A stretch of 64,000 nt of DNA, taken from a bacterium (GTDB lineage: Bacteria > Patescibacteriota > Patescibacteriia > Patescibacteriales > JAKAJF01). A program made the position numbers and the translations under genes. Location: contig JAJYLD010000001.1 of NCBI GenBank assembly GCA_021788015.1, positions 17,581-81,580 on the forward strand, written 5' to 3'. Numbering within the stretch: the stretch's first letter is position 1; each line of letters opens with the position of its first letter. Of this stretch, positions 2,775-44,574 are shown piece by piece. A model generated the notes under the pieces. It did no database searches. It was not told where the DNA came from and worked only from the letters and a program-made list of their open reading frames with translations.

Positions 2775-2780
2775 TTTTTT

Positions 2781-3464
2781 ATGATTGAATTAAGAAACAT
2801 AAATAAAATCTACATCAGCGACGACGTTGAAACACAGGTGTTAAAAAACATTTCTTTCAAAATAGATAAGGGCGAGTTTGTGGCCATCACCGGTCCGTCG
2901 GGATCGGGGAAGTCAACCATAATGCATATCATCGGCGCCCTTGATTCGCCGACAAACGGAGAGTATTTTTTGGACGGGAACGATGTTTCCAAACTTTCCG
3001 ACGATGAACTTGCCGATATCCGAAGAAATAAAATCGGGTTTGTTTTTCAGGCGTTTAATCTGCTGCCGAGGGCCACAGTTTTGCGCAATGTTACGCTTCC
3101 GCTTGTTTACGCGGAGACCGTGCCTGAAAAAAGAACGGAGATGGCGAAGAAAGCTTTGCTCGCGGCCGGTTTGGACGAAAATCGCTGGTATCATTTTTCC
3201 AATCAGCTTTCCGGAGGGCAAATGCAAAGAGTGGCGATCGCCCGCGCTTTAGTAAACAATCCTTCGATTATTCTCGCCGACGAACCGACCGGCAATCTTG
3301 ATACGAAAACGGGCGAGATCGTTTTGGACACTTTCCAGAAACTTAACAGGGAAGAAGGTCATACCATTATCTTAATAACCCACGAATACGAGGTCGCGAA
3401 ACGAGCGAATCGAATAATATCAATTCGGGACGGGATGATTGTTGAGGATAGAAATAATTTCTAA
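2781..3464 (+). CDS. ABC transporter ATP-binding protein, MacB/LolD/FtsE-like
   Basis: Walker [11 protein letters not shown]-loop, signature [15 protein letters not shown], Walker [13 protein letters not shown]-loop ITHE. Confidence 0.92.
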
Positions 3465-3465
3465 A

Positions 3466-3590
3466 TCCTGATATCTAATTTCTAAAAAATTTCAAAGTTC
3501 AAAATTAAAAACTCAAAACGTTCTGATATTTCGATTTTTAATTTGGAATTTGTTTGGGATTTAAGATTTAGAGATTAGAAATTTATTTTG
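3466..3590. repeat. AT-rich imperfect palindromic intergenic element (aaatcctaa/ttagatt word family)
   Basis: The left arm (aaatcctgatatctaatttctaaa...ttcaaaattaaaaa) is the imperfect reverse complement of the right arm (tttttaatttggaa...ttagagattagaaattt). The same words recur flanking corA. Confidence 0.5.
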
Positions 3591-3592
3591 TT

Positions 3593-4816
3593 ATGTTAAT
3601 TTCCGATTTAATTTTTGAAACTTATTTGGCTGTAACGGCCAACAAGGCGAGATCCGTTCTTACCATCCTTGGTATCGTTATCGGCATCGGATCGGTTATT
3701 TCCATGATTTCCGTGGGCCAAGGTGCGCAAAGTTCGATCCAGTCGAGCATCCAATCGATCGGATCCAATTTAATTTTAGTTATGCCCGGAGCTCAGCACG
3801 AAGTGGGGCCCGGCGCGAGTTTGGGCAGAGGATCGGCCGAAACCTTAACCCTTGACGACGCCGACGCCATCCAAAAAGAGATAAGCGGAGTGAGCGCGGT
3901 GGCCCCGGAAAATTCGCGCCGTTATCAGGTAACGGCAAAGGGGCAAAATACGAATACCCAGATCGTCGGCACGGTTCCGGCTTATACTTCCGTTCGCAAT
4001 TTGGACATCGATGAAGGTTCTTTTATAACGGACGAGGAAGTAAAAAGCACGGCCAGAGTGGCGGTAATAGCGCCGACCACCTCGAGCGATCTTTTCGGAG
4101 ACGGAGTCGATCCGATAGGGAAAGACATTCAAATCAAACAAGTCGATTTCAAGATCATTGGTTTGACCAAATCCAAAGGCGGAACCGGATTCGGCAACCA
4201 AGACGATATGATTTTTATTCCGATTTCGACCGCGCAAAGATATTTGTCCGGAGACAACTACATTACCACCATCAGCGTTCAGGCGCAAGATCAATCGTCT
4301 CTGTCTTCCGTTCAACAGCAAATCACGGATTTGCTCCTGACCAGACATAAGATTTCCAATCCGCAAAACGCCGATTTTTCCACCTTGAACCAGGCCGATA
4401 TCGTCCAAACCGCTTCGTCGGTGACCGGCACTTTCACGATTCTTTTGGCCGCAATCGCCGGAATCTCTTTGGTTGTCGGCGGAATTGGCATAATGAACAT
4501 GATGCTTACGACCGTTACGGAAAGAACGAAAGAAATCGGCTTGCGCAAGGCGATCGGGGCGAAAGCGGCCGATATCAATTTGCAGTTTTTAATGGAAGCG
4601 ACCATGCTTACTTTTTTCGGCGGTGTCATCGGCGTCATTTTGGGATGGATAATATCGTTGGCGATAAGCAAATTCGCCGGTATCGCCACGACCGTTTCTC
4701 TGTTTTCCATAATTTTGGCGTTCGGCGTTTCGGCCACGATCGGGATTGTTTTCGGCTATTACCCGGCAAGAAGGGCTTCCAAATTGAATCCGATAGAAGC
4801 GTTGCGCTACGAATAG
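3593..4816 (+). CDS. ABC transporter permease, FtsX/MacB type
   Basis: 407 aa with an N-terminal TM helix, a large extracytoplasmic domain and a C-terminal FtsX-type bundle (TERTKEIGLRKAIGAKAADI...). Ends ...NPIEALRYE, typical of MacB permeases. Confidence 0.9.
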   Translation: MLISDLIFETYLAVTANKARSVLTILGIVIGIGSVISMISVGQGAQSSIQSSIQSIGSNLILVMPGAQHEVGPGASLGRGSAETLTLDDADAIQKEISGVSAVAPENSRRYQVTAKGQNTNTQIVGTVPAYTSVRNLDIDEGSFITDEEVKSTARVAVIAPTTSSDLFGDGVDPIGKDIQIKQVDFKIIGLTKSKGGTGFGNQDDMIFIPISTAQRYLSGDNYITTISVQAQDQSSLSSVQQQITDLLLTRHKISNPQNADFSTLNQADIVQTASSVTGTFTILLAAIAGISLVVGGIGIMNMMLTTVTERTKEIGLRKAIGAKAADINLQFLMEATMLTFFGGVIGVILGWIISLAISKFAGIATTVSLFSIILAFGVSATIGIVFGYYPARRASKLNPIEALRYE

Positions 4817-12807: not shown

Positions 12808-12946
12808 TTAATTAATAGGAGCTTTGATCCGTGATGAAAGAACACTGGTCGCCGGCCAATCTATCACGGGGAGCCAATGGCGAAACCGACTATTAATTAA
12901 TGTGTCTGATTTTTCGGATGCATTAATGAGTGGCCGGTTTTTTTCT
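12808..12946 (+). promoter_or_regulatory. riboswitch-like aptamer + intrinsic terminator, unit 1 (class unrecognised)
   Basis: P1 12808-12818/12890-12900 (TTAATTAATAG/CTATTAATTAA). P2 12829-12835/12863-12869 (CCGTGAT/ATCACGG). Distal CTGG-TCG-CCGG hairpin. The terminator reuses ACCGAC+ATTAATG (12885-12902), pairing with CATTAAT..GCCGGT (12921-12938), followed by T7. Confidence 0.6.
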
Positions 12947-12967
12947 TTTAAAATTAAATTAAATTCG

Positions 12968-13098
12968 TTTAATAGGAGCTAAGACCCGTGGTAAAAATTT
13001 CCTTGGTCGCCAGGATATCACGGTAGCCAATGGCGAAACCGACTATTAATTACATTTTGATTGCGCAAAATGGAAATGTAATTCGTGGTCGGTTTTTT
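12968..13098 (+). promoter_or_regulatory. riboswitch-like aptamer + intrinsic terminator, unit 2
   Basis: P1 12969-12975/13043-13049. P2 12986-12992/13017-13023 (CCGTGGT/ATCACGG). Its 3' strand TAGCCAATGGCGAAACCGACTATTAAT is identical to unit 1 from AGCC onward. Terminator ACCGAC..AATTACATTT (13038-13057) / AAATGTAATT..GTCGGT (13074-13093) followed by T6. Confidence 0.6.
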
Positions 13099-13308: not shown

Positions 13309-15831
13309 ATGCCCCTAAATACTTATCAGCAAAAGCGCGATTTTAAAAAGTCTCCGGAACCGAAAGGAGAACTGAAGGGGAGCAAAGGAAATTATTTGCA
13401 GTTTGTAATTCATAAGCATGACGCTTCCCATCCGCATTACGATTTAAGACTCGAGGGAGGAGGAGTCTTAAAAAGTTGGGCGATTCCGAAAGAACCGGAT
13501 TTGGATGCCGGTAAAAAAATTTTGGCGATAATGGTCGAGGATCATCCGTTCGATTACAAAAATTTCGAGGGCGTAATTCCGGAAGGAAATTACGGGGCGG
13601 GAACGGTAATGATTTGGGATAGCGGCGTTTATTACGCCATCGGAGCGTCAAACCGGGAAGAAAGCGAGAGAGAGATTTTGGATGGATTAAAAAAGGGGGA
13701 AATCGGTTTCGTCTTGGAGGGAAAAAAATTAAGAGGAGGGTTCTCGTTGGTAAAATTTAAAAAAGGGAAAGACAACAGCTGGCTATTGATTAAAAAAAAC
13801 GATCAGTTCGCAAACAAGGAAATTAAAGGCAAGGACATTTCAGTAAAAACCGGAAGAATGATGGAGGAAATAGCGGAGAATAAAAAAATAAAAAAGTTTG
13901 CGGGAAGATATTTGGAAATACATATTAAAGGGGCTCCTAGAGCTAAACTGCCGGAAATATATAAACCGATGCTGGCCCATTTAGTGAAGGAGCCTTTTAA
14001 TAGAAAAAATTGGTTGTTTGAAATAAAATACGACGGTTACAGGGCGATAGCGCGAATAGACGACGCCAGCGCGGAAATTTTTTCACGAAACGGCTTGAGT
14101 TTCAACGGTCGTTTTTCGTCGATAGCGGAATCTTTAAAGCATGTTCCTTATAAAGTCATTTTGGACGGAGAAATAGTCGTTACCGACAAACAAGGAAAAT
14201 CCGATTTCGGCCTTTTGCAAAATTATATAAAGACCGGCGACGGTTATCCGGTTTATTGCGTTTTCGACATTTTGCATTTTCAGGATTACGATTTAAAAAA
14301 TTTGCCGCTCGCGAAAAGAAAAGAGATTTTAAAAGAAATTTTGCCGGAACTTCCGAATGTAAAATATGTAAGCCATATTGAAGAAAGGGGAGAAGCTTTG
14401 TTTAAAATGACGGCCGAACGGGGAATCGAAGGCATAATCGCCAAAGACGAAGAAAGCGTTTACGAACCGGGTCAAAGAAGCGTCCATTGGCTGAAAATTA
14501 AAAAAATGAACCGGCAGGAGGCGGTTATCGGCGGCTTTACGGAACCGCGAGGCGAAAGAAGGGGAATCGGGGCTTTGGTTTTGGGAGTGTATGAAGACGA
14601 CGATCTTGTTTACATCGGCCATACCGGCGGGGCTTTTGCCGGAGAAAAACTCGCGGAGATGAGAAAAAGATTGAAGCCGTTAATCAAAAAAATTTCTCCG
14701 TTTAAGAAAGAACCGAAAACAAACGGAAAAGTCCATTGGGTTGAGCCGAAATTGGTTTGCGAAGCGAAATTTTCGAACTGGACAAAAGATGGCTATATGC
14801 GCCAGCCGATTTTTCTCGGACTCAGGGAGGATAAAAATCCACGCGAAATCAAAAGAGAAAAGGCGGAAGACGCGAAACTAATCGCCAAGGAGAGTAAGGG
14901 CGCGATTAAACATAAATTAAAAACGGCGGATAATTCGGAATTTAAAAATTTGGATAAAATTTTTTGGCCGAAAGAAGGTTACACTAAAGGAGACTTGTTG
15001 GACTATTATGAAAAAATCGCGCCGATAATTTTACCTTATTTGAAAGACAGGCCGGAATCGTTGCATCGTTTTCCTGACGGGGTAGAAGGGAAAAATTTTT
15101 TTCAGAAAAACATGGAAAAAATTCCGGGCGGGACGGAAACTAAAACGATTTATTCCGAAACGCAGGACAGGGAAATCAATTATATTTTATGCCAAGACAG
15201 GGAAACGCTTCTGTACCTTGTCAATTTGGGATGCATCGAATTAAATCCATGGAATTCAAGAATAAAAAGCTTGGACAATCCCGATTATATCGTTTTCGAT
15301 ATCGATCCGGGGGAAGCGCCTTTTCGGAAAGCGGTTCAAACGGCCTTGGTAACGCATGCGGTTTTGGGAGAGACGGGAGTAAAAAATTTTTGCAAGACAT
15401 CCGGAGCGACGGGATTGCACGTTTTTGTTCCCTTGGGAGGAAATTACAGTTATGAACAGGCGCGTGAATTCGTAAAACTGATAAATATCATTGTAAATGG
15501 CCGTCTGCCGAAAATAACGACCCTGGAGCGAAGCCCTGGCGAAAGGGACTCAAGAATTTATTTGGATTATTTGCAAAATCGAAAAGGGCAAACAACGGCT
15601 TCGGCTTACTCGGTCAGTCCTTTGCCCGGGGCCCCGGTTTCGACTCCTTTGAGATGGGAAGAAGTAAATTTTGATTTGAATCCGAAAAGTTTTAACATAA
15701 AAAATATTTTTGAAAGAATAAAAAAGATCGGAGATGTCTGGGAAGGAGTTCTCGGGGAAGGGATCGACATGGAAAAGGCTTTGCATAAATTGGAGCGATT
15801 TTTGGAAATTAAGAAGGGGGGTGGCTCATAA
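13309..15831 (+). CDS. ligD: ATP-dependent DNA ligase D (3'-phosphoesterase + ligase + polymerase/primase domains)
   Basis: 840 aa. The N-terminal PE domain has KRDFKKSPEPKG and FVIHKHDASHPHYDLRLE..GVLKSWAIPKEP. The ligase domain has adenylation motif EIKYDGYRA. The C-terminal LigD polymerase domain has LDKIFWPKEGYTKGDLLDYYEKIAP...SGATGLHVFVPL. Confidence 0.92.
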   Translation: MPLNTYQQKRDFKKSPEPKGELKGSKGNYLQFVIHKHDASHPHYDLRLEGGGVLKSWAIPKEPDLDAGKKILAIMVEDHPFDYKNFEGVIPEGNYGAGTVMIWDSGVYYAIGASNREESEREILDGLKKGEIGFVLEGKKLRGGFSLVKFKKGKDNSWLLIKKNDQFANKEIKGKDISVKTGRMMEEIAENKKIKKFAGRYLEIHIKGAPRAKLPEIYKPMLAHLVKEPFNRKNWLFEIKYDGYRAIARIDDASAEIFSRNGLSFNGRFSSIAESLKHVPYKVILDGEIVVTDKQGKSDFGLLQNYIKTGDGYPVYCVFDILHFQDYDLKNLPLAKRKEILKEILPELPNVKYVSHIEERGEALFKMTAERGIEGIIAKDEESVYEPGQRSVHWLKIKKMNRQEAVIGGFTEPRGERRGIGALVLGVYEDDDLVYIGHTGGAFAGEKLAEMRKRLKPLIKKISPFKKEPKTNGKVHWVEPKLVCEAKFSNWTKDGYMRQPIFLGLREDKNPREIKREKAEDAKLIAKESKGAIKHKLKTADNSEFKNLDKIFWPKEGYTKGDLLDYYEKIAPIILPYLKDRPESLHRFPDGVEGKNFFQKNMEKIPGGTETKTIYSETQDREINYILCQDRETLLYLVNLGCIELNPWNSRIKSLDNPDYIVFDIDPGEAPFRKAVQTALVTHAVLGETGVKNFCKTSGATGLHVFVPLGGNYSYEQAREFVKLINIIVNGRLPKITTLERSPGERDSRIYLDYLQNRKGQTTASAYSVSPLPGAPVSTPLRWEEVNFDLNPKSFNIKNIFERIKKIGDVWEGVLGEGIDMEKALHKLERFLEIKKGGGS

Positions 15832-17170: not shown

Positions 17171-17365
17171 ATGTTTAAAGAATATTTCGAATTTGGGTGT
17201 AAGGATTTGGGAATCGATTGCGACTTTTTAATCCAATCGAGTTCGAAAGATGAGTTAATGGAAATCGCTCTCGACCATTTTGCAAAAATACACGGCAAGA
17301 AAGAAATACAAGACGGAGAAAAAAATGAAATGCACGAAGCGATAAGGACTATAACGGTCATTTAG
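17171..17365 (+). CDS. DUF1059 small metal-binding protein
   Basis: 64 aa. FGCKDLGIDCDFLIQSSSKDELMEIALDHFAKIHG matches the DUF1059 pattern. Confidence 0.7.
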   Translation: MFKEYFEFGCKDLGIDCDFLIQSSSKDELMEIALDHFAKIHGKKEIQDGEKNEMHEAIRTITVI

Positions 17366-17490
17366 TTCATTTTAACATACGATCGCGAAATGGCGGCGCA
17401 TATTTGTCGTTTCACGGTTGAAAAAAAGAAAAATTTTCACTACCCATGCCGGATTCACAGATGAATTTTTGGGAAGAAACGCTCGGAAGA

Positions 17491-17525
17491 AGCTTGCCGC
17501 CGAAACAAATTTTCGGCGGCAAGCT
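17491..17525. other. perfect 15-bp hairpin (intergenic)
   Basis: AGCTTGCCGCCGAAA-CAAAT-TTTCGGCGGCAAGCT. Lies inside the N-terminal extension of track ORF 17446, which argues against that extension. Confidence 0.6.
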
Positions 17526-17550
17526 TAAAGAGCAAAATCGTATTAATGAC

Positions 17551-17580
17551 AAAAAACTCCGGCGGGGACCGGAGTTTTTT
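17551..17580. terminator. bidirectional intrinsic terminator
   Basis: AAAAAACTCCGG-CGGGGA-CCGGAGTTTTTT. Confidence 0.75.
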
Positions 17581-17589
17581 GAGGACGTA

Positions 17590-18363
17590 ATGATTTCAAA
17601 AAAAGAAAAAATACATATCGGAACGTCGGGGTGGGTTTATCGCCATTGGCGGGGAGTTTTTTATCCCGAGGACTTGCCCGACAAAAAAAAATTAAAATTT
17701 TTTTCCGAACATTTTAAAACCGCGGAAGTAAATTATTCTTTTTACCGTTTGCCCGCCTTAAAAGTTTTTGAAAATTGGCGCGAACAAACGCCGGACGATT
17801 TCATATTCGCGGTGAAAGCGAGCCGTTTCATAACTCATGTAAAGCGTTTGCGCGATGTCGGGGGAGCGTGGACGGAATTTTTAAGGCGGGCAAAGGGTTT
17901 AAAAGAAAAAACGGGACCGTTGCTTTTGCAATTTTCTCCGAATTTTAAATTTAACGACGCGAATTTGCGAAGAATCGAAACGTTTCTCGAAGAATCAAAA
18001 AGCATTGAGAAAAAGTTATTTGGCAAAAAATTGAAATTGGCGTTTGAATTTCGCGATGCGAGCTGGGTTAACGAAAAAATTTTTGAAGTTTTAAAAAAAC
18101 ATCAAGCCGCCTGGGTCATCGCCGATTCGGGGGCATACCCTAAAACAGAAGCGGTTACCGCGCGATTTGTTTATGTTCGGATGCACGGACCGGCGGGTTT
18201 GTTCGGCTCCGGTTACCCCGAAAATGAAATAAAGAGTTTGGCCGAAAGAATTAAAACATGGACAAAAAACAATTTGGAGGTTTATGTGTATTTCAATAAT
18301 GATGCGCAAGGATTTGCGGTTAAAAATGCCAAAGAACTGCTGTCATTTTTAAAGCGATTATGA
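17590..18363 (+). CDS. DUF72 (YecE/UPF0759) family protein
   Basis: ATG at 17590 (MISKKEKIHIGTSGWVYRHWRGVFYPEDL...), downstream of the two hairpins. The motifs are typical of DUF72. The stop overlaps the next start (ATGA). Confidence 0.8.
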   Translation: MISKKEKIHIGTSGWVYRHWRGVFYPEDLPDKKKLKFFSEHFKTAEVNYSFYRLPALKVFENWREQTPDDFIFAVKASRFITHVKRLRDVGGAWTEFLRRAKGLKEKTGPLLLQFSPNFKFNDANLRRIETFLEESKSIEKKLFGKKLKLAFEFRDASWVNEKIFEVLKKHQAAWVIADSGAYPKTEAVTARFVYVRMHGPAGLFGSGYPENEIKSLAERIKTWTKNNLEVYVYFNNDAQGFAVKNAKELLSFLKRL

Positions 18364-31428: not shown

Positions 31429-32490
31429 TCAGCTCCTCTGGATTTTATCGAGCTCTGCCGGCTTGAATACTCCACGGTCTGTGATAATCCGGGTTATGTA
31501 TTTCGCCGGGGTCACATCGAAGCCGAGATTTACGGCCTCGGCGCCTTCGGGAGCGATCGCCTCTTCCCGGAAGTGCGTCAATTCTTTGGGAGACCGTTCC
31601 TCGATTTTAATCTCGTCTCCTGAATTAAGATTGAAATCGATTGTACTGGTCGGCGCCGCTACATAAAATGGAATGCCGTGCTCCTTGGCGAGGACGGCGA
31701 TCTGGTACGTACCGATTTTGTTCGCCGCATCGCCGTTCGCGACCACGCGGTCGGCGCCCACGACGACAACGTTGATTTTACCCTGGCGCATAAGAGCTCC
31801 GACGGCGCTATCCGCGACAAGAGAAGCGGGCACGCCCTCTTCAATGAGCTCATACATGGAAAGCTTTGAACCCTGATTCAGCGGGCGCGTTTCCGTCTGG
31901 AAAACATACTCCACCCTACCCGTACGGAAACCTCTAACGATAATGCCGAGAGCCGTACCTCCGCCGCCCACGACGGCGAGATTGCCCGTGTTTCAGTGAT
32001 GCAAAACACACGCGCCTTCGGGTAAAATCCCGAGGCCGTATGCTGAGATCGCTCGGTTTACTACTATATCTTCCCGTGCGATCGCAATGGCCTCGTCAAG
32101 AACCGCCTCCTTGATCTCAGCCGCGGTTTTCGTTTTGCGCGCTCTTTCCATAACTCTATCCAGACATTCGAACAGGTTCACCGCCGTCGGCCTCGTAGTC
32201 AATAATTCATCGGCCGCTGTCTCGAGATAGCGCAGAAGAAAAATGGCGTCTTCAGTCTCAGTCTCCTCCGAAGCGAGCACCATTCCGAACGCCCCCGCGG
32301 CTCCGATTGCCGGCGCGCCCCTGACGGCCATGTCTTTTATGGCTATGGCTACGTCTCCCCATGCGCGGCAAATAAGATACTCTGTTATTCCGGGCAACTT
32401 ACGCGTGTCCAGAATTTTTAGGATGTGTCCATCGTACGGTACGCCTCTCCACGTGAGCTGCAAAGTAGTTGAGGCAAATTCTGTTTGCAT
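31429..32490 (-). CDS. MtnA/eIF-2B-family sugar-phosphate isomerase (MTR-1-P or ribose-1,5-bisphosphate isomerase type) with in-frame UGA at the active-site Cys codon
   Basis: Track ORFs 31993-32535 and 31429-31971 are colinear in one frame: ...MAVRGAPAIGAAGAFGM...EGACVLHH-TGA-NTGNLAVVGGGGTALGII...ETRPLNQGSKL...VVVGADRVVANGDAANKIGT. The TGA is at 31993-31995. ATG at 32490 lies behind GGGGGTGA. Confidence 0.75.
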
Positions 32491-32634
32491 TTTCACCCCC
32501 ATTTTAGATTTAAAAAAAGAGCCGATCCAAATCAAGCTCCTCCTTTAAACTTAATCTAAGGCAAAATTAAAAATAATGCAAGGCGGGACGGAATAATAAA
32601 AAAGTTCGCGTCTAGCGAACTTGGATGCGCGGGT

Positions 32635-33867
32635 TTAACCCGCGTGTTTTCTGAAGCCCCGGTGTTCGGGGGCGAGGAAAGCGACAGACAGGCCGGCATC
32701 GGCGAAGAGCTGTTTTACCTCGTCCTTGTGCTGGCCATCACAAGGAACGACACCGCCCTTGCATCCGGCGTCAATGAGCAGCTCCGGCCCCTCGCGGCGG
32801 TCGGATTGGGAAACGAGACTGGAAATCTCGGAAAGGTAATTTAAGGCCTCTCTTTTCCCATCTCCGGTTTCCGCTGCGAGTGCGTCTTCCGCGGCTGCGT
32901 TTAAACCGCCGATTCTGTCTATTAATTTGTCAAGATCAGAAAGGTTGCCCTTAGCGTACGGGAAAAATGCATCGGAAGCAAACAGTGAATCCTTTGGATC
33001 ATGTCCGGCTCTATTCGCCCGTTCAAGGCAAAGGCGGACGCAGGCGATTCTGTCCTGCTGGCCGCAGCCCAAACCGATGAGCATCTGGTCCTTGGCGAGC
33101 GCGACTGTATTGCTCGATGCGAACCAGCAGCAGGCCCAGGCGATGATCAATGTCCCGAAATCAGTAATATTGGGTTTGCCTCTCATCGCAAGGGCAGGTA
33201 CATAATTGGTCCAATCAACCACCTCACTCGGAGTAAGATAAAACCCCGGAGCTCGCTGGACAAGCATGTCGGCGCCGATGCTCTTCCGTTCCCAAAGTCC
33301 GGGAAACGGCCTGGGATCAAGTAGCGCTTTATTGGCTATCAAACGTCTTTTTTCTCTCTTGCCGAGGAGCTCGATTGCTTCCTTTGAAAATGACGGCGCG
33401 AGTATGAGATCGAGTCCCCATTTTTTGCGGCCGATATCCGGGTCGTTCGGCACGGTAAAAAGTCCATCGGCAAGCCCCTCATCAATGGCAAAGTTGGTAA
33501 CCACCTCTCCGCCCATGACCGCGACAGAATCGCCCGTAAGCGCTTTGCGTATGGCCTTGGCTGGGTTGTCCCAATCATAAGCCGCGCCGCACGGATTGCC
33601 GTGCTTGCCGGCGACCGTGATATAAGGCATCTTGCCGGATGCTGCTTGCCTGAACGTTTCGGCGATGGTGCGCAAGATCGTGGTAATCTGGTATCCGTCG
33701 GCCATGGAAATATAGCTCGGCTCGCCGGAAACGATCTTAAATTTCGACATGGCCAACGGATCTCTAACCCCTTCAATCGACACAAGTGAAGCTGGATTTT
33801 GATACCGGTTCTCCGCGTAAGCGAGCTCCTTCGGAGTTCCTAACTTTATGTGGTTCGTTTTAGACAT
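32635..33867 (-). CDS. purH: AICAR formyltransferase (PurH C-terminal domain as a separate gene)
   Basis: Start MSKTNH at 33867 overlaps the stop of the upstream gene (ATGTCTAA). Motifs [59 protein letters not shown]. Confidence 0.8.
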
Positions 33868-34474
33868 CGGTTCCATCTCCGTCCTCGCCCATGGCCCGCG
33901 CGAGATAATCGGCAATCGTTCCGTCGTACCGAGACATCAGTTCGAAGACTTTTTTGGCAAGCCCGAGCCTGGTTTCTCTGTCGACCTGTCCGTTGTCGCT
34001 CATCTTTTTGAGAATCATATCGTAGTCATGCGGATCGACCACGACCACCACGCTTTCGAAGTTCTTGGCCGCGGCGCGAATCATTGTCGGCCCGCCAATG
34101 TCGATATTCTCGATGGCATCCTCGAATGTGCAGTTCGGTTTCGCGATCGTTTTCTCGAACGGGTAGAGGTTCACGACAACCATGTCGATCATCCCGATTC
34201 CGTGCTTTGCCGCTTCCGTCATATCTGCCTGCACATGCCTGCGCGCGAGTATGCCGCCGTGGATTTTCGGGTGAAGCGTCTTCACTCTCCCGTCCATCAT
34301 CTCGGGGGAGCCTGTGTAAGTGGAAACATCGATGACAGGAATGTCGGCGTCTTTAAGAGTCTTTGCCGTGCCGCCGGTCGAGATGATCTCGACACCCATT
34401 TCCGAAAGTCCCCGCGCAAAGTTCACAAGCCCGGTTTTGTCCGAAACACTGATTAACGTTCTTTTAATTTTCAT
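33860..34474 (-). CDS. purH: IMP cyclohydrolase (PurH N-terminal MGS-like domain as a separate gene)
   Basis: [35 protein letters not shown]...[25 protein letters not shown]...[16 protein letters not shown]. Confidence 0.85.
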
Positions 34475-35128: not shown

Positions 35129-35157
35129 CTGACCCCTCCTTATTATCAAAGTTTTGT

Positions 35158-35348
35158 TAGTGCCAAAAGAGGGAATCGTCCCGCCATTCGCTTCGCGGGC
35201 GGGATCGCTCGCTCACACGCTCGCGAAACTCATCTGCTCTGTGGGCATAGTGGAATCGAACCCTCATGAGATTGCTCTCACACGATTTTGCCCCGGCACC
35301 AATAAGGTGCGGGGCACCCTGAACCCTTTGTGGTTCAGGGTGAGTCGT
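35158..35348 (-). other. decayed partial duplicate of tRNA-Leu (anticodon stem to 3' end) split by GC-rich hairpin insertions
   Basis: 35252-35289 is identical (38/38) to 35373-35410 of the intact tRNA. 35341-35348 (TGAGTCGT) matches 35410-35417. 35158-35178 (tagtgccaaaagagggaatcg) matches the tRNA 3' end 35359-35379. The intervening segments form hairpins. Confidence 0.7.
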
Positions 35349-35361
35349 TTTTAATTTCTAG

Positions 35362-35445
35362 TGCCCGGAGAGGGAATCGAACCCTCATGAGATTGCTCTC
35401 ACACGATTTTGAGTCGTGCGCGTCTGCCAGTTCCGCCATCTGGGC
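35362..35445 (-). tRNA. tRNA-Leu (anticodon CAA), type II with long variable arm
   Basis: Minus strand: GCCCAGATGGCGGAACTGGCAGACGCGCACGACTCAAAATCGTGTGAGAGCAATCTCATGAGGGTTCGATTCCCTCTCCGGGCA. Anticodon loop CTCAAAA and T-arm GAGGG-TTCGATT-CCCTC. One A-C mismatch in the acceptor stem. CCA is not encoded. Confidence 0.85.
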
Positions 35446-37048: not shown

Positions 37049-37927
37049 ATGTCCAATGGTCTTGGTAGGGGATTAAGCTCTCTTATCCCACAAAAAGTGA
37101 ATAAAGCCGGAACGACGCAAAGCGGCGAAGCTTTGGTGCATGTCATTTCGGAAGAAGACAAAAACAAAGTTTTGCAAATCGAAGTCGAGAAAATAAAAGT
37201 CAATCCCATGCAGCCTCGAAAAAATTTTTCCGAGACGGAATTGAACGAACTCGTCGATTCGATTAAAAAATACGGGATCATCCAGCCCCTGATCGTAACG
37301 GAAAAGAACGGAGATTTCGAATTGATCGCGGGAGAGCGAAGACTCAGGGCTTCAAAAATCTTGGGACTGGAAAAAATTCCGGTCATAATCCGCGACGCCT
37401 CGAGCCAGCAAAAATTGGAAGTGGCTTTGATCGAAAATGTGCAAAGAGAAAATTTAAACGCGATCGAAACGGCGCTCGCTTACCGAAAACTTATCGATGA
37501 ATTCAGTTTAAGTCAGGAAGAAGTCGCGAGCCGGGTCAGCAAATCGCGTCCGTCCGTTACGAACACATTAAGACTTTTGAATTTGCCAGACGAAATCCAG
37601 GCGGCTCTAATCGAGGGCAGGATTTCGGAAGGCCATGCCAAGTTATTGGTTGGAGTAGATAATGAAGCGAAGCGGATGGCGCTTTTCCGGAAAATCGTTC
37701 ATAGCGGTTTGTCGGTAAGCGACACTTACGACGAAACGCGAAGACTCGGCGGAACGAAACAGGCGAGAATAAAAATAAATTACGCGGACAAGGACAAGGA
37801 ATTCGCTTTCCGCGAGTTTTTCGGAACGAAAGTGGAAATTAAAAGAAAAGGGAAGGGCGGTCAGGTGATTTTGGATTTTTTTAGCGATGAAGAATTGAGT
37901 GCGATGGTCGAGAAGGTAAAAAAGTGA
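37049..37927 (+). CDS. parB: chromosome partitioning protein ParB/Spo0J
   Basis: GLGRGLSSLIP, IKVNPMQPRKNF, GIIQPLIV, ELIAGERRLRASK, and the HTH region SQEEVASRVSKSRPSVTNTLRLL. Confidence 0.93.
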   Translation: MSNGLGRGLSSLIPQKVNKAGTTQSGEALVHVISEEDKNKVLQIEVEKIKVNPMQPRKNFSETELNELVDSIKKYGIIQPLIVTEKNGDFELIAGERRLRASKILGLEKIPVIIRDASSQQKLEVALIENVQRENLNAIETALAYRKLIDEFSLSQEEVASRVSKSRPSVTNTLRLLNLPDEIQAALIEGRISEGHAKLLVGVDNEAKRMALFRKIVHSGLSVSDTYDETRRLGGTKQARIKINYADKDKEFAFREFFGTKVEIKRKGKGGQVILDFFSDEELSAMVEKVKK

Positions 37928-38000
37928 ACCGTTGAAGCGCGCTGAGGCACACTGAATGCACTGAAAGTTTATTACGTCGTCAGAGTTTATACAGAAATAA

Positions 38001-38092
38001 CTCAAAACTCAAATGTCAAAAGTCAAAACTGCAACTTAAAATTCAAAACTTTTTAGCTTTTAGTTTTGGTTTTTGAGTTTTGCGTTTTGAGA
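38001..38092. repeat. AT-rich palindromic intergenic element (caaaactcaaa family), copy 3
   Basis: ctcaaaactcaaatgtcaaaagtcaaaactgcaacttaaaattcaaaac...tagttttggtttttgagttttgcgttttgag. Confidence 0.6.
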
Positions 38093-38224
38093 ATTTAGAT
38101 ATTTTAAAAAACGCTTCTCGCGTTCTTTTTTATTTTTGGGCAAATTTAAGGGAGCCTTTTTAGGGGCTCCCCGAGGTGTGTGCGGCCGGAACCGTTTTGG
38201 GTTCGGCCATTTTTTCGAGGTCAT
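38060..38224 (-). CDS. 54-aa highly basic small ORF
   Basis: ATG at 38224, 3 nt after AAGGGAGG. MTSKKWPNPKRFRPHTPRGAPKKAPLNLPKNKKEREKRFLKYLNSQNAKLKNQN*. The 3' part runs into the AT-rich palindrome, so the true end is uncertain. Confidence 0.35.
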   Translation of the reverse strand: MTSKKWPNPKRFRPHTPRGAPKKAPLNLPKNKKEREKRFLKYLNSQNAKLKNQN

Positions 38225-38556
38225 AAACCTCCCTTTCTGCCCCGACGTTTCGGGGCGGCGTTTTTTTCCGGAAAAGGGGAGGGGGCCGGCTTTCTTTGGG
38301 AAGCGTCCCATAAAGCCGGCCGGCGAGTGCGCTATCCTGCCTGCCGTTAAGATGTCGGCCTAGTTGGAGTGGGGGGCGGACTGGCGGCGTGCGCATTCGC
38401 TTCCGAATGCCTACTCAAATGGTTCCGTTTTGGCCGGAGGAACTCGGCAAAGTCTCCCGGCCCTTTGATGGACGGCTTTATGCCAGAGCCATCAATCATT
38501 CGGTGGCATCAGAATCCCTCCCTTGTTTTTCCGTACGTGCGTCCGGGCGCCCAGGG
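38225..38556 (-). ncRNA. GC-rich highly structured RNA region (leader or ncRNA, unclassified)
   Basis: Minus-strand helices: GGCCGGCTTT/AAAGCCGGCC (10 bp perfect, 38284-38321) enclosing GGGA-CGCT-TCCC; GCCCCGA-AACG-TCGGGGC; GCATTCG-GAAG-CGAATGC; TGATGG..CCATCA; and CCTCCCCTTT pairing with the AAAGGGAGG RBS of the ORF at 38224. Both-strand track ORFs here look like GC artefacts. Confidence 0.4.
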
Positions 38557-38709
38557 TTATATCTTTATTATCTGGTCCAGGCCCGCGCTCTCGGCGGCGA
38601 TCAGCTCGGTCGTCTTCTTCATCTCGGCGTTCTTCAGGCCCACGTCGTGGCCGGCGGCGAAATTGGATAAGGTCCTCATATGGTCGGCTCTCTTGGTGTG
38701 TCCGTTCAT
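38557..38709 (-). CDS. 50-aa small ORF
   Basis: ATG at 38709 behind GGAGGAAACAAACCAC. MNGHTKRADHMRTLSNFAAGHDVGLKNAEMKKTTELIAAESAGLDQIIKI*. No family recognised. Confidence 0.4.
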   Translation of the reverse strand: MNGHTKRADHMRTLSNFAAGHDVGLKNAEMKKTTELIAAESAGLDQIIKI

Positions 38710-39095
38710 GTGGTTTGTTTCCTCCGTGTTGTCTTTTTTCGATTTTACTTCTTTTTGGATTTTGGTTTTTTTTGCTCTCTGGTTCTGCAAACGACGACTA
38801 CCGCGAATTAGGACAAATGGATACCTACCCTCCTTTCGTTATAAATTAAAATTAATTTTTATGCCGTCTCCTGTTTTAGGAAGTCGGCATTTTAAGGACA
38901 AAATTTTTATTATCCACAAAATGCCGAATTCCTTGACTCTCGAAAAATATCTAATTTTAGGGTTATTTAAAGAACATGATTACTCAATAATGAAATATTA
39001 GCAAAACTAATTTTAAAAATCAAGCAACAAACGTTTTAATTTAGCATGGAGTTAAAAGTTTGTCAAGGACCGAAAGATAAAGGGGAATTTGATAT

Positions 39096-39123
39096 TTGAC
39101 ATTTTCGTAAAATTTATTAAAAT
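39096..39123 (+). promoter_or_regulatory. sigma-70-type promoter candidate
   Basis: TTGACA (39096-39101), 16 nt, TAAAAT (39118-39123), about 50 nt upstream of the ORF at 39176. Confidence 0.45.
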
Positions 39124-39175
39124 TGATTAAATTTGGAGAAAATTCGAAAAATTCAATAAAGAAGGGGGATTTCGA

Positions 39176-39814
39176 ATGAAGATTGTATCGGCATCAGCTC
39201 TTTACAAAGGCGGCGATCTTTGCCCCATATGCGGCAGGGAAAAGGAAAAAGGAGTGGTATTTTGCTCATCATGCTGGAAGCCCGAATTGATGGAAGAAAT
39301 TTACGCCATCGAAAGGGCGCAGAGGTTGATTGATCTCGCCAACGAGCGGCTTGCTTCGAGGAGAAAAGCGGTTTCCAAAAAGCCGGTCCTCTCTTTATTC
39401 AGGATCAGCCAGAACGCAAGATGGCACAAGGAGATAAAAGAGGTTCCGGTTTCGTACCTCGAAACATCTTTTTCTATCCCGGATCCTTTGGGCGAAGGGA
39501 TCGGGAGTTTGCCGGTTTTCGTTTTCGGGGTCAACCAAAATGATGCTGGCAGAACAATATCCGTTCTCGCGGAGCTTAAGAAAAAAATGGCCAGAGTGAA
39601 CGGAGAAAAAAGAGGAATAAAGTATCTGCGTCTGCAGAAAGTCGATTTTCACAATCTGCGGCCGGATGTGTGTCTGCATATTACCGTACACAAAGATGCG
39701 CGGGAATTATTCGTGCCCGGCCTGCCCCAGCTCGCTCTTACGGATTTCTTCGATTACAAAAATCCGCACAAAGAGCAGTTTAAAAAATTTCTTATGGGTT
39801 TCATCAAAGCGTAA
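39176..39814 (+). CDS. hypothetical protein with N-terminal zinc-ribbon (CPICG...CSSCW)
   Basis: 212-aa ORF with RBS agaaggggg. No family recognised. Confidence 0.55.
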   Translation: MKIVSASALYKGGDLCPICGREKEKGVVFCSSCWKPELMEEIYAIERAQRLIDLANERLASRRKAVSKKPVLSLFRISQNARWHKEIKEVPVSYLETSFSIPDPLGEGIGSLPVFVFGVNQNDAGRTISVLAELKKKMARVNGEKRGIKYLRLQKVDFHNLRPDVCLHITVHKDARELFVPGLPQLALTDFFDYKNPHKEQFKKFLMGFIKA

Positions 39815-41584: not shown

Positions 41585-41607
41585 AGTACGTTCAATTTGA
41601 ACGTACT
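41585..41607. terminator. palindromic terminator overlapping the GGDEF gene stop
   Basis: AGTACGTTCAA-T-TTGAACGTACT. On the minus strand it is followed by CTTTTTATTTT. Confidence 0.6.
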
Positions 41608-42158
41608 TTGCTCGGCAAAAGAATTATTTTTTCCTTGCTTCTTTTAATTTTATACATCATTTCATCCGCTCGATCAATCAACTCAAGCGGACTTACATCT
41701 TCGCCGGGTTTATATTCCGTAATTCCTATGCTCGCCTTAATTTTATGGTCGGCGAGCAATTTTTTGGCAAAGATTTTGGCACTGTTATTATCCGTTTCCG
41801 GGAGAACGACCACGAATTCATCGCCTCCGTATCGCGCGCATAAATCGGACGACCTTGTATAGCGCTTGATTGTTTCGCCTACATAGGCCAGGTGTCGATC
41901 GCCCTCGATATGCCCCTCCGTGTCGTTCAGTTTTTTGAACCCGTCAAGATCCATAAACAAAACGGATAATTTGCGGCCGTATCGATCGGATCGATCCATT
42001 TCCAATTTCAGTTCTCTCGCCAGCCCCCGACGATTTAAAAGTCCGGTGAGATCGTCTATGGCGGCTTGCTGTTTCAGCTTTTCATTTTCGCGCCGCAATG
42101 ATATATTCTTTATCAATGCGACTATGAGTAAGGCTAAAATTAAAAAAAGAGCATACAT
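41592..42158 (-). CDS. membrane-anchored GGDEF diguanylate cyclase
   Basis: ATG at 42158 (MYALFLILALLIVALI) behind GGGAGGAC. DDLTGLLNRRG, FMDLDGFKKLND, RYGGDEFVVVL. Confidence 0.88.
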   Translation of the reverse strand: MYALFLILALLIVALIKNISLRRENEKLKQQAAIDDLTGLLNRRGLARELKLEMDRSDRYGRKLSVLFMDLDGFKKLNDTEGHIEGDRHLAYVGETIKRYTRSSDLCARYGGDEFVVVLPETDNNSAKIFAKKLLADHKIKASIGITEYKPGEDVSPLELIDRADEMMYKIKRSKEKIILLPSKVRSN

Positions 42159-42218
42159 GCCTAAAGTCCTCCCATTTTGTTTTTTTATCAAGGCAAAACA
42201 TCTGACTTTACAATAAAA

Positions 42219-43190
42219 ATGAAAAAACGTCAAGACTTTTGGAAAGAATTAAAAAAACGAGGGAAAATATACGCTTTGGCGCCAATGGCCGGCGTTACCG
42301 ATAGCGCGTTTCGGCAAATTTGCAAATCATACGGAGCCGATGTCGTTTACAGCGAAATGGCGAGCGCGACCGCTTTGACTTTTAATCCGAAAGAAACTTT
42401 GGACATGCTTAAGTTTGAAAAAATGGAACGGCCGTACGTCGTGCAACTGTTCGGAAGCAAGCCCGAACATTTCGCAGTCGCGGCGAAATTGGTAGCAAAG
42501 AAAATAAAGCCGGACGGAATCGATATCAACTTCGGATGTCCGGTCAAAAAAGTGCAAAAGCAGCATGCCGGCGCATCGCTCATGAGCGATTTGCGATTAT
42601 CGAAGAAAGTAATCGAGGCAGTTTTAGAAAATGCGAATTTGCCGGTTTCCGTAAAAATGAGAAGCGCGTCGGGTAAAATAGACGCGATAAAATTTTTAAA
42701 GAACATTGGAAATCTGAAAGTGAGCGCGGTCATGATTCATGGCAGAACGATGGCGCAGGGACACGCGGGAGAAGCGGATTGGAAAATTATCAGAGAGGCG
42801 CGGAAACATTTCCGGGGCGTTCTTCTCGCGAACGGAGGAATTACGAGCGCGGAAGACGCTCGAGCAATGCTCGAAAAAACCGGCGCGGACGGAGCGGGGA
42901 TCGCGCGCGGCGCCTTGGGCAGGCCGTGGATATTTAAAAATATAAAAAATAAAAAATTAAAAATAAAAAATGAGGATGTTTTCAAGATTGCCTTAAAGCA
43001 TTCGAGGCTGGCTTATAAACTGAAAGGCAAGCGGGGGGTTATTGAAATGAGAAAACATTTATGTTGGTATGTTTCGGGCATGTCGAACGCGAGCGAGTTG
43101 AGGAGGGAATTGGTGAAGGTGGAAAAAATAAACAAGATAAAGAGCATCTTGATAACGGATAACAAAAAAATTCTAAATCCTAATATCTAA
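42219..43190 (+). CDS. dus: tRNA-dihydrouridine synthase
   Basis: ATG at 42219. LAPMAGVTDSAFRQICKSYGADVVYSEM, GIDINFGCP, VMIHGRT. Confidence 0.9.
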   Translation: MKKRQDFWKELKKRGKIYALAPMAGVTDSAFRQICKSYGADVVYSEMASATALTFNPKETLDMLKFEKMERPYVVQLFGSKPEHFAVAAKLVAKKIKPDGIDINFGCPVKKVQKQHAGASLMSDLRLSKKVIEAVLENANLPVSVKMRSASGKIDAIKFLKNIGNLKVSAVMIHGRTMAQGHAGEADWKIIREARKHFRGVLLANGGITSAEDARAMLEKTGADGAGIARGALGRPWIFKNIKNKKLKIKNEDVFKIALKHSRLAYKLKGKRGVIEMRKHLCWYVSGMSNASELRRELVKVEKINKIKSILITDNKKILNPNI

Positions 43191-43325
43191 ACTCTAAACA
43201 ATATCGGATGACAAAAATAAAAATTCAAAATGTTTTGGTTATTTGAATTTTATAGCTTTGGATTTGTTCAATCTGCCGGCCGGCCGGCGGGGATTTAGAA
43301 ATTAGGATTTAGGATTTATAATTTT
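43170..43325. repeat. left arm of long inverted repeat flanking corA
   Basis: ttctaaatcctaatatctaaactctaaacaatatcggatgacaaaaataaaaattcaaaatgttttgg... is the near-exact reverse complement of 44313-44450. It carries a 25-nt GC insert (gttcaatctgccggccggccggcgg). Confidence 0.7.
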
Positions 43326-43347
43326 GTTTGTTTTCCGTCGTCTAAAG

Positions 43348-44310
43348 TTACAGCCATTTTTTCTTCTTAAAGAACATAAGCATGCCGGCCGCTATTAAAG
43401 CCATAAATCCGATGATTATCCAGAAACCGTGCTTCCCGTGAATAAAAGGCATGCCGTCGACCGTGTTCATGCTAAAAATCGTCGCGAACAGAGTCAAAGG
43501 AAAAACGATAACGGAAAAAATGGTCAAAGTTTTGATGACGTCGTTCAATTTATAATTCAAGAGAGATTCATTCGTTTCGTATAGAATGTCAACCATTTCT
43601 TTTTGATTTTCAAGAATTTCCCAAATCGTTTTCGAATGCTCGATCAAATCCTTGTAAAATCTTATTATTTCTTCGTTCATGACGATATGGTTTTTCATTT
43701 CGAGAAGTTTTTTGAAAATGTTTTTATGGTTCTGCATGATTTTCCTGAAGTTGATGATATTGAGGCGCAAAGCCAAAATTTCCGAAATCGCCTTTTTTCT
43801 TTCGGGCGAAAAAATCATGTTTTCGACATTTTGTATTTCCAAGCTGTTTTTGTCGATAAGCGAATAGCATGAGAGCATCAATTTTTCCAAAACCTCGTAA
43901 AGCAGGACGGCCGTCGATCCGAATTCGCAAGCCAGGAAAGAGCTCCCGTCCTTTTTGCACAAATTGAACAAAATGTTGAGATGCGGCACGTTGTTATGAA
44001 TCGTCGCCAAATATGTCTCACTTATGAAAAAATCAAACTCATCCGGCACGATTTTCCCGTCCTTCAAGGCGGGAAATTGCAAAATCAAAAAAAGATAACC
44101 GTTACCCTGGCTTAGGCTCGGCCGTTGCGCGATCGCTTTTGCGGAGGAAGCCTGAAGATGACTGAGATTGAAATTGTATTCCTTCCGCAAATATTCGATT
44201 TCTTTTTTTCCGGCGTTGGTGATATTAAGCCAAACAAGTTCATTGTCGAGAGCCGGATTGCTAATGGCAACTTGTTGAATCGTTTTTGAAATTTGATTGA
44301 ATCTGGACAT
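43348..44310 (-). CDS. corA: CorA-family magnesium/cobalt transporter
   Basis: 320 aa. Two C-terminal TM helices with ..FATIFSMNTVDGMPF.. (GMN-type motif). Confidence 0.85.
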   Translation of the reverse strand: MSRFNQISKTIQQVAISNPALDNELVWLNITNAGKKEIEYLRKEYNFNLSHLQASSAKAIAQRPSLSQGNGYLFLILQFPALKDGKIVPDEFDFFISETYLATIHNNVPHLNILFNLCKKDGSSFLACEFGSTAVLLYEVLEKLMLSCYSLIDKNSLEIQNVENMIFSPERKKAISEILALRLNIINFRKIMQNHKNIFKKLLEMKNHIVMNEEIIRFYKDLIEHSKTIWEILENQKEMVDILYETNESLLNYKLNDVIKTLTIFSVIVFPLTLFATIFSMNTVDGMPFIHGKHGFWIIIGFMALIAAGMLMFFKKKKWL

Positions 44311-44312
44311 AA

Positions 44313-44450
44313 ATAAATAAAATCCTAAATCCTAATTTCCAAATCCTAAATAAATCCGAAATTATAAATCCAAATGACCAAAATGTTTTGAATTTTTATT
44401 TTTTGTCATCCGATATTGCTTAGAGTTTTAGATATTAGAAATTAGATTTT
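44313..44450. repeat. right arm of long inverted repeat flanking corA
   Basis: ...caaatgaccaaaatgttttgaatttttattttttgtcatccgatattgcttagagttttagatattagaaattagattt; see the left arm. Confidence 0.7.
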
Positions 44451-44574
44451 TTAAAATTTAAATTCGGGTTGGAATTTAAATTTATTCGGGTCATTCGAAA
44501 TAAATCGGCAGATTCCGATTACTTATATTATAGCACACCTTGACAGGTTTACGAAAATTTAATAAGATGAAAAC

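Follow-up and report, generated by a model that had tools for sequence, protein, structure and literature searches.

The 1.25-kb gap between parB and p212 in this Patescibacterium (Parcubacteria/Falkowbacteria-like) contains a GC-rich stretch (38225-38556) that is predicted to fold, on its minus strand, into a well-defined four-way junction. The reading favored here, with a probability of roughly 40%, is that this structured RNA domain is co-transcribed 3' of an orphan, possibly acquired small gene, with terminators stacked after it that face parB. All positions refer to the window, that is, the whole 64,000-nt stretch of DNA that was analyzed, and the coordinates of the features are collected in Table 1. 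The first-pass annotation had described the stretch as GC-rich, densely structured RNA, and this description holds: GC content is 60%, and the minus-strand minimum free energy (MFE) has a z-score of -4.66 against dinucleotide shuffles. In the statistical sense the structure is real, and the stretch is a non-coding orphan.

As envisaged, a GC-rich cassette of ~600 bp, found only in this lineage, would occupy the space between parB and the orphan gene p212, where synteny breaks. Read along the minus strand, it would carry first the gene for a 50-aa helical protein (38709-38557), then the ~265-nt non-coding domain (38533-38269), a four-way junction closed by CCCUCCC/GGGAGGG, and lastly three terminator-type hairpins (38256-38106), two of which would stop transcription from parB and one of which, being bidirectional, would end the minus transcript. 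Transcription of the small gene would continue into the domain, giving a long structured 3' region that functions as RNA. It would either stabilize and insulate the 3' end of the small mRNA or, once processed, form a stand-alone RNA. Which strand is transcribed, whether one transcript covers both the small gene and the domain, and what the domain does are inferred. Counting against this reading, a 3' UTR of 450 nt is unusually long for bacteria, and structure in foreign DNA can be accidental.

Table 1. Features of the parB-p212 gap and its borders, in window coordinates.
Feature	Position	Strand	Remarks
parB	37049-37927	+	precedes the gap
Long AT-rich palindrome by the parB end	37994-38094		one of the window's family of AT-rich intergenic palindromes
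54-aa basic ORF	38060-38224	-	probably spurious; dicodon score -0.16
Bidirectional terminator A6-AACGC-loop-GCGUU-U6	38106-38131		runs on both sides; plus-strand scan 38110-38124
GC-rich island, 602 bp	38136-38737		GC 57.5% vs 32%/30% in adjoining intergenic flanks and 43% in the window
Hairpin GGGAGCC-loop-GGCUCCC	38150-38171		P = 0.99
Second terminator GGCCGGAACC-GUUUUG-GGUUCGGCC, then A-U6	38184-38215	+	scan 38189-38204
SD-like AAAGGGAGG (38236-38228) with AUG 38224	38217-38236	-	GGAGG core in local hairpin GAGGUU/GACCUC, P = 0.9-1.0
Canonical intrinsic terminator GCCCCGA-CGUU-UCGGGGC, then GGCG-U7	38239-38267	+	9 pairs, 7 of them G-C; scan 38237-38258
Core domain, ~265 nt, four-way junction	38269-38533	-	z = -5.66; well-defined ensemble
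P1 closing helix	CGGAAAA 38533-38527/UUUUCCG 38275-38269 and GGGAGGG 38522-38516/CCCUCCC 38283-38277	-	predicted fold
Arm C, perfect 10-bp plus 5-bp hairpin GGCCGGCUUU-AU-GGGA-CGCU-UCCC-AAAG-AAAGCCGGCC	38284-38321	-	P = 0.94-0.99
Arm B, basal GCGA/UCGC and UGCGC/GCGCA	38323-38400	-	base P = 0.99; weaker interior, P = 0.4-0.7
Arm B terminal loop, C-rich, 14 nt, CCCCACUCCAACUA	38374-38361	-	predicted fold
Arm A, long irregular stem	38401-38514	-	branches UUGAUGG..CCAUCAA 38495-38465 and GGCCGG..CCGGCC 38462-38432
50-aa ORF MNGHTKRADHMRTLSNFAAGHDVGLKNAEMKKTTELIAAESAGLDQIIKI	38557-38709	-	probably a real gene; dicodon +0.53, GC3 0.84
Promoter-like site TTGACA-17-TAAATT with extended TG	39038-39066	-	best on the minus strand; consensus match only
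p212, 212-aa zinc-ribbon-like orphan gene	39176-39814	+	database search returns only itself

The setting of the GC-rich island

The island stands out from its surroundings by base composition, with sharp edges. An identical copy of its sequence is present in an independent Logan assembly, so an assembly chimera can be ruled out. The order of genes up to parB (purine genes, tRNA-Leu, parA, parB) is common to relatives, and the order 3' of parB is different in all relatives examined, which places the island at a synteny break. No GTDB species representative has a protein more than 73% identical to ParB, and no entry in a collection of 5.8 billion proteins exceeds 77%. In the closest ParB relative with usable flanks (L084, 77% identical), a gene-poor stretch of ~2.1 kb (1708-3883) with a GC content of up to 64% lies right 3' of parB; its sequence is unrelated to the island and has no Rfam match. 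Foreign DNA may insert repeatedly at the site 3' of parB. A gene for a 23S-rRNA-intervening-sequence protein (PF05635; 36617-36856, plus strand) lies between parA and parB and is missing there in the closest relatives, L083 and L085.

The promoter-like site of the minus strand is divergent from a promoter-like site for p212 at 39096-39123. Two other roles for the gap were considered and set aside: a centromere, as no parS-like site was found, and a replication origin, as there is a single perfect DnaA box at 38910 and no box cluster. That box, TTATCCACA (38910-38918), is the window's only perfect match to the DnaA-box consensus and is held in a hairpin with 24-nt arms (38878-38933) in the AT-rich gap upstream of the 50-aa ORF. 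AT-rich palindromic repeats of the AAATCCTAAATCC type occur at 43164-43333, 44311-44452, and 37994-38094; an inverted pair of 80 nt (74% complementary) flanks the CorA gene (43348-44310), and a related long palindrome abuts the parB end.

Irregularities were also seen elsewhere in the window. The tRNA-Leu(CAA) gene (35361-35445, within 35150-35445 on the minus strand) is followed by a 39-nt copy of its anticodon-to-T-arm portion that is 100% identical (35252-35290) and by a third copy of the tRNA 3' end that is 77% similar (35158-35187); these tandem fragments look like integration scars or a pseudo-tRNA. On the minus strand, two genes appear split: an IF-2B/MtnA-like gene (31429-32535) into a pair of 180-aa ORFs, and purH (32635-34474) into overlapping ORFs of 204 and 426 aa. 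Both lie in a locally GC-richer block (52-56%), and the splits may reflect frameshifts, pseudogenes, or assembly indels.

The predicted fold and the terminators beside it

MFE and centroid structures concur on a four-way junction spanning 38533-38269, in which most helices have probabilities of 0.85-1.0. The perfect 10-bp stem described in the first-pass annotation forms arm C, pairing GGCCGGCUUU (38321-38312) with AAAGCCGGCC (38293-38284) beneath the cap UGGGA-CGCU-UCCCA. The UGAUGG helix reported there was likewise found, as UUGAUGG/CCAUCAA at 38495-38489/38471-38465. The base of arm A includes a mini-ORF of five codons that runs from the AUG at 38509 to a UGA at 38492; here too the SD-preceded start and its product, MPPND-UGA, were as first described. 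A third hairpin from the same list, GCAUUCG-GAAG-CGAAUGC, is present as sequence (38410-38393) but has no place in the favored fold, where its probability is ~0 and its enforced formation carries a penalty of +7.8 kcal/mol. No GNRA loops or other recognizable tertiary motifs were seen when the predicted loops were inspected.

The fold is both more stable and better defined than chance would give. A 273-nt core (38265-38537) has an MFE z-score of -5.66 when read on the minus strand and of -4.33 when read on the plus strand. Shuffled sequences have an ensemble diversity of 0.207 +/- 0.066 per nt; the core has 0.081, and only 2 of 120 shuffles were as low. Of its positions, 79% are well defined, against 42% in shuffles, a level reached by 1 of 120. 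The difference between the two strands is modest, amounting to 5 G-U pairs, and the minus strand was chosen because of this difference together with the orientation of the 50-aa ORF. Across 192 background windows of 332 nt from the contig (mean z = -0.9, sd 1.8), a z-score of -4.66 or lower was found in six, mostly at intergenic hairpins, terminator palindromes, or a tRNA. GC-rich perfect hairpins are frequent in the intergenic DNA of this genome (e.g., 17490-17580), and part of the z-score may be due to ordinary terminator-style hairpins. No part of the window has a more extreme folding z-score than 17265-17596 (-9.8 in a scan with 12 shuffles, -6.8 with 100), which owes it to a perfect 16-bp hairpin, AGCUUGCCGCCGAAA..UUUCGGCGGCAAGCU, together with a bidirectional terminator, AAAAAACUCCGG..CCGGAGUUUUUU; the two fall within a listed ORF (17446-18363), the true start of which is probably further downstream.

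The closing helix P1 invites another explanation, in which CGGAAAA..GGGAGGG and CCCTCCC..TTTTCCG are the terminal inverted repeats of a 265-bp non-autonomous element resembling a MITE. The imperfect inverted termini, of about 15-18 nt, fall exactly at the ends of the domain, the size is typical of MITEs, and the locus is variable. However, BLAST, nhmmer, and a covariance model gave no further copy in the parts of the 361-kb contig that were covered, namely the 64-kb window and ~3.5 kb in L089, or in 54-88 other loci. Moreover, the flanks carry no target-site duplication, the interior consists of independent arms rather than a single long palindrome, and no transposase is nearby. A mobile element of this kind is thought very unlikely.

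Next to the junction lie hairpins of a more familiar kind. G+C stems followed by U-runs, as in intrinsic terminators, occur at 38106-38131, 38184-38215, and 38239-38267, the first with runs on both strands. The hairpins at 38239-38256 and 38184-38208, with U7 and U6 on the plus strand, face transcription coming from parB. On the minus strand, the stem AAAGAACGC/GCGUUUUUU at 38128-38106 is the only canonical stop for a transcript. The GCCCCGA-AACG-UCGGGGC hairpin of the first-pass annotation is indeed present (38256-38239), and is most simply the terminator on the parB side. The hallmarks of intrinsic terminators are confined to 38106-38267, and they leave the 265-nt junction unexplained, accounting for no more than the structured zone's 3' third.

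Coding potential and the small ORFs

Coding signal was assessed by GC content at each codon phase and by a dicodon log-odds model for which 47 ORFs of the window, taken as genes, served as the training set. All six frames of 38225-38556 lack such a signal: GC by phase is flat, dicodon scores do not exceed 0.26, and residual 3-nt periodicity and coding-like dicodon scores are absent throughout. The long overlapping ORFs on the two strands, which had initially been regarded as artefacts, proved to be so: the called ORFs of 78 aa (minus) and 177 aa (plus) are singletons with non-coding scores. The 78-aa ORF, called by gene finders, scores -0.16, and the plus-strand ORF (177/210 aa; 38369/38468-39001) scores -0.13 to -0.17, with -0.16 within the block of high GC3.

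The 50-aa ORF just upstream on the minus strand behaves differently and is probably a gene missed by annotation. Its dicodon score equals the real-gene median, a level that 0% of off-frame segments reach, and the minus frame scores +0.5 to +0.7 over about 38800-38555. A GGAGG at 38725-38721 lies 11 nt 5' of the ATG, and an in-frame TTG at 38790 would extend the product to 77 aa. Third codon positions are G or C in 42 of 50 codons, including 29 in a row (P ~6e-5), and every other gene in the window has a GC3 of 0.68 or less. AlphaFold2 predicts one long helix for the product (pLDDT 89), which is uninformative for a fold search. The product is charged and amphipathic and is predicted as a soluble helix, and a type I toxin-antitoxin system was accordingly rejected, as its toxin would be a small hydrophobic, membrane-active peptide, accompanied by an overlapping antisense RNA.

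Frame arithmetic shows that the 50-aa ORF and the plus-strand ORF share their wobble positions. GC3 was therefore dropped as a means of telling the strands apart, and the dicodon model was used instead; the assignment to the minus strand follows from this model and from a periodicity that ends at the stop codon of the minus ORF. The same evidence bears on the reading that the 177/210-aa plus ORF is the real gene and that the zone is a terminator or insulator region after parB or else a plus-strand RNA. Three canonical plus-strand terminators and a plus-strand fold with z = -4.3 fit such an arrangement, and GC3 by itself is indecisive given the shared wobble positions. Nevertheless, the plus ORF is a singleton whose scores (-0.13 to -0.17, and -0.16 in the high-GC3 block) compare poorly with the +0.53 of the minus frame, the periodicity stops with the minus ORF, and the terminators cover 38106-38267 only and not the four-way junction. 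The plus-strand reading is decidedly improbable.

The extreme GC3 of the 50-aa ORF (0.84 vs at most 0.68) suggests that the ORF, or the whole cassette, came from a foreign source of higher GC. Taken further, the island could be nothing other than decaying foreign DNA, a recent fragment of a higher-GC genome or element in which one small ORF, or else a gene's 3' end, survives together with intergenic sequence and terminators, and in which the fold is incidental and without function. The GC3 and the 29-codon run unlike native genes, the sharp composition boundaries, the synteny break with the orphan p212 adjoining, and the lack of relatives in the searches that were run all agree with this. So do the SD and AUG at 38522-38507, which open just five codons; two phage contigs contain the same 18-mer, oriented and placed, when judged by eye, as an RBS with an ATG would be, a hint of a truncated gene start. 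Set against these, a z-score of -5.7 with a well-defined ensemble is rare in arbitrary genomic sequence, 38225-38556 shows no residual 3-nt periodicity or dicodon signal, unlike a fresh pseudogene, and the small ORF is intact and has its own SD. On balance, decay without function is judged somewhat unlikely, and a structured domain following the small gene is the preferred account.

The stretch had been placed between two tiny ORFs, and of these the upstream one looks real and the downstream one, the 54-aa basic ORF, looks spurious. In a statistical test on what is a short ORF, the latter scores like off-frame sequence and under all 51-codon segments of real genes. It also runs through three terminator-type hairpins, two of them canonical terminators, is not called by gene finders, and has no significant match in Pfam or NCBIfam. 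It was the proposed target of a switch, in which a 5' leader, riboregulator, or thermosensor would mask its AAAGGGAGG RBS through CCUCCCCUUU. Both the anti-SD tract CCCUCCCCUUUU (38283-38272) and the RBS are present as described, with a complementarity of 6 bp, a 1-nt bulge, and 3 bp. Likewise, the order GGGAGGG ... CCCUCCC ... GGGAGG resembles an anti-anti-SD/anti-SD/SD switch, and AAAGG:CCUUU pairing reaches ~0.5 once the upstream partner is removed (fragment 38150-38300).

In the transcript context, however, the CCUCCCCUUU tract (CCCUCCC) pairs with the upstream GGGAGGG in P1 (P = 0.98), and the probability of the anti-SD:SD helix is at most 0.04, with the SD core taken up by its local 6-bp hairpin. 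The sequestering helix thus finds no support. The spacing between SD and AUG is only 3 nt, and the supposed target scores as non-coding (-0.16, under all real-gene segments), crosses the three hairpins, including canonical terminators, and is skipped by gene finders. With the anti-SD engaged in the closing helix, a riboregulator or thermosensor for the 54-aa ORF is regarded as highly improbable. SD-sequestering leaders and RNA thermometers such as ROSE and fourU do offer a likeness, in that a GGAGG element is base-paired near an AUG. They differ in that the ORF downstream here is probably not a gene, the partner of the GGAGG is a 6-bp local hairpin, and there is no Rfam match.

Relatives, known systems, and significance

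The view that the stretch matches no RNase P, tmRNA, SRP, or 6S RNA was borne out by Rfam, where riboswitches, group I and II introns, and OLE, GOLLD, ROOL, and raiA were also negative. At gathering thresholds (Rfam 15), the island had no match. The best hits, with E-values of 0.7-7, scored 11-18 bits where the families require 36-92 bits. Runs at gathering and permissive thresholds on the window, 37900-39200, and 38140-38720 returned nothing credible, and ARAGORN found no tmRNA. Elsewhere in the window, two tandem c-di-GMP-II-GAG riboswitch aptamers (12808-12900 and 12965-13053, plus strand; 61.6 and 43 bits) lie upstream of an 840-aa ORF (13309-15831), and a GGDEF diguanylate cyclase is encoded at 41592-42233.

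Searches for homologues of the island gave a similar outcome. Among ParB-linked loci (80 GTDB species and four closer metagenomic contigs), blastn and nhmmer returned self matches only, as did a covariance model of the 273-nt domain run on 54 such loci. For the 50-aa ORF, a word-index search, phmmer against 1.84 billion representatives (0 matches), Pfam, NCBIfam, PDB, and IMG/VR were all empty. Pseudo-proteins, that is, translations of non-coding DNA (38369-38710 plus, 38163-38396 minus) with several degenerate patterns scanned together, had no relatives in two scans of JGI metagenomes or in IMG/VR. Exact-motif scans of IMG/VR gave chance matches only (a coding region in L082 and RBS-looking sites in L087 and L088), and the blastn matches among phages and plasmids were all chance ones, to coding DNA of high GC. 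Across these searches, no homologue of the island was found.

In dual-function RNAs, such as S. aureus RNAIII/hld, SgrS/SgrT, and SR1/SR1P, a small protein is encoded together with a structured regulatory domain. The island is similar in having a small ORF on the same strand as several hundred nt of predicted stable hairpins, and an anatomy of this kind, with the 50-aa ORF followed by the modeled structured domain, is compatible with a dual-function RNA. C-rich UCCC loops have been described (PMC2790875), and the RNAIII-like, C-rich single-stranded or loop tracts CCCCACUCCAACUA and CCCUCCCC of the present fold could pair with SD sequences. Even so, there is no sequence or structural homology to the known cases and the host is a Patescibacterium, so the likeness is one of resemblance only. 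A bolder possibility, thought quite unlikely, is an undescribed class of structured RNA in Patescibacteria, in which a dual-function transcript would encode the 50-aa helical protein and have the four-way junction of ~265 nt as its 3' part. The domain would then be the RNA partner of the protein or a trans-acting, SD-binding regulator working through its C-rich loop or tract, and the cassette may come from a higher-GC host.

Screens of long, GC-rich intergenic regions (GC-IGR/DIMPL, from the Breaker laboratory) nominate structured ncRNAs by high GC content and strong structure (PMC8632094, PMC6429828, PMC8723152), and rank a motif only if it has more than three representatives (PMC8632094). 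The island shares with their "Unnamed IGR" candidates a long intergenic extent, a GC content far above background, and strong predicted structure. It differs in having only one representative, which puts it in the bin "Unnamed: insufficient evidence". Known from a single sequence, it would be an "Unnamed IGR" by the GC-rich-IGR criteria (PMC8632094), and comparative pipelines leave such single-copy orphans unnamed by design.

The practical value of the check is negative: the SD switch is unsupported, two called ORFs are artefacts, and a probable gene of 50 aa is unannotated. Should the domain be a functional RNA, it would join the very small number of structured ncRNAs that have been proposed for the candidate phyla radiation outside the universal set. 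It would also represent a cassette of a small protein plus an RNA that has possibly moved between genomes of widely different GC, and would bear on how episymbiotic bacteria acquire genes.
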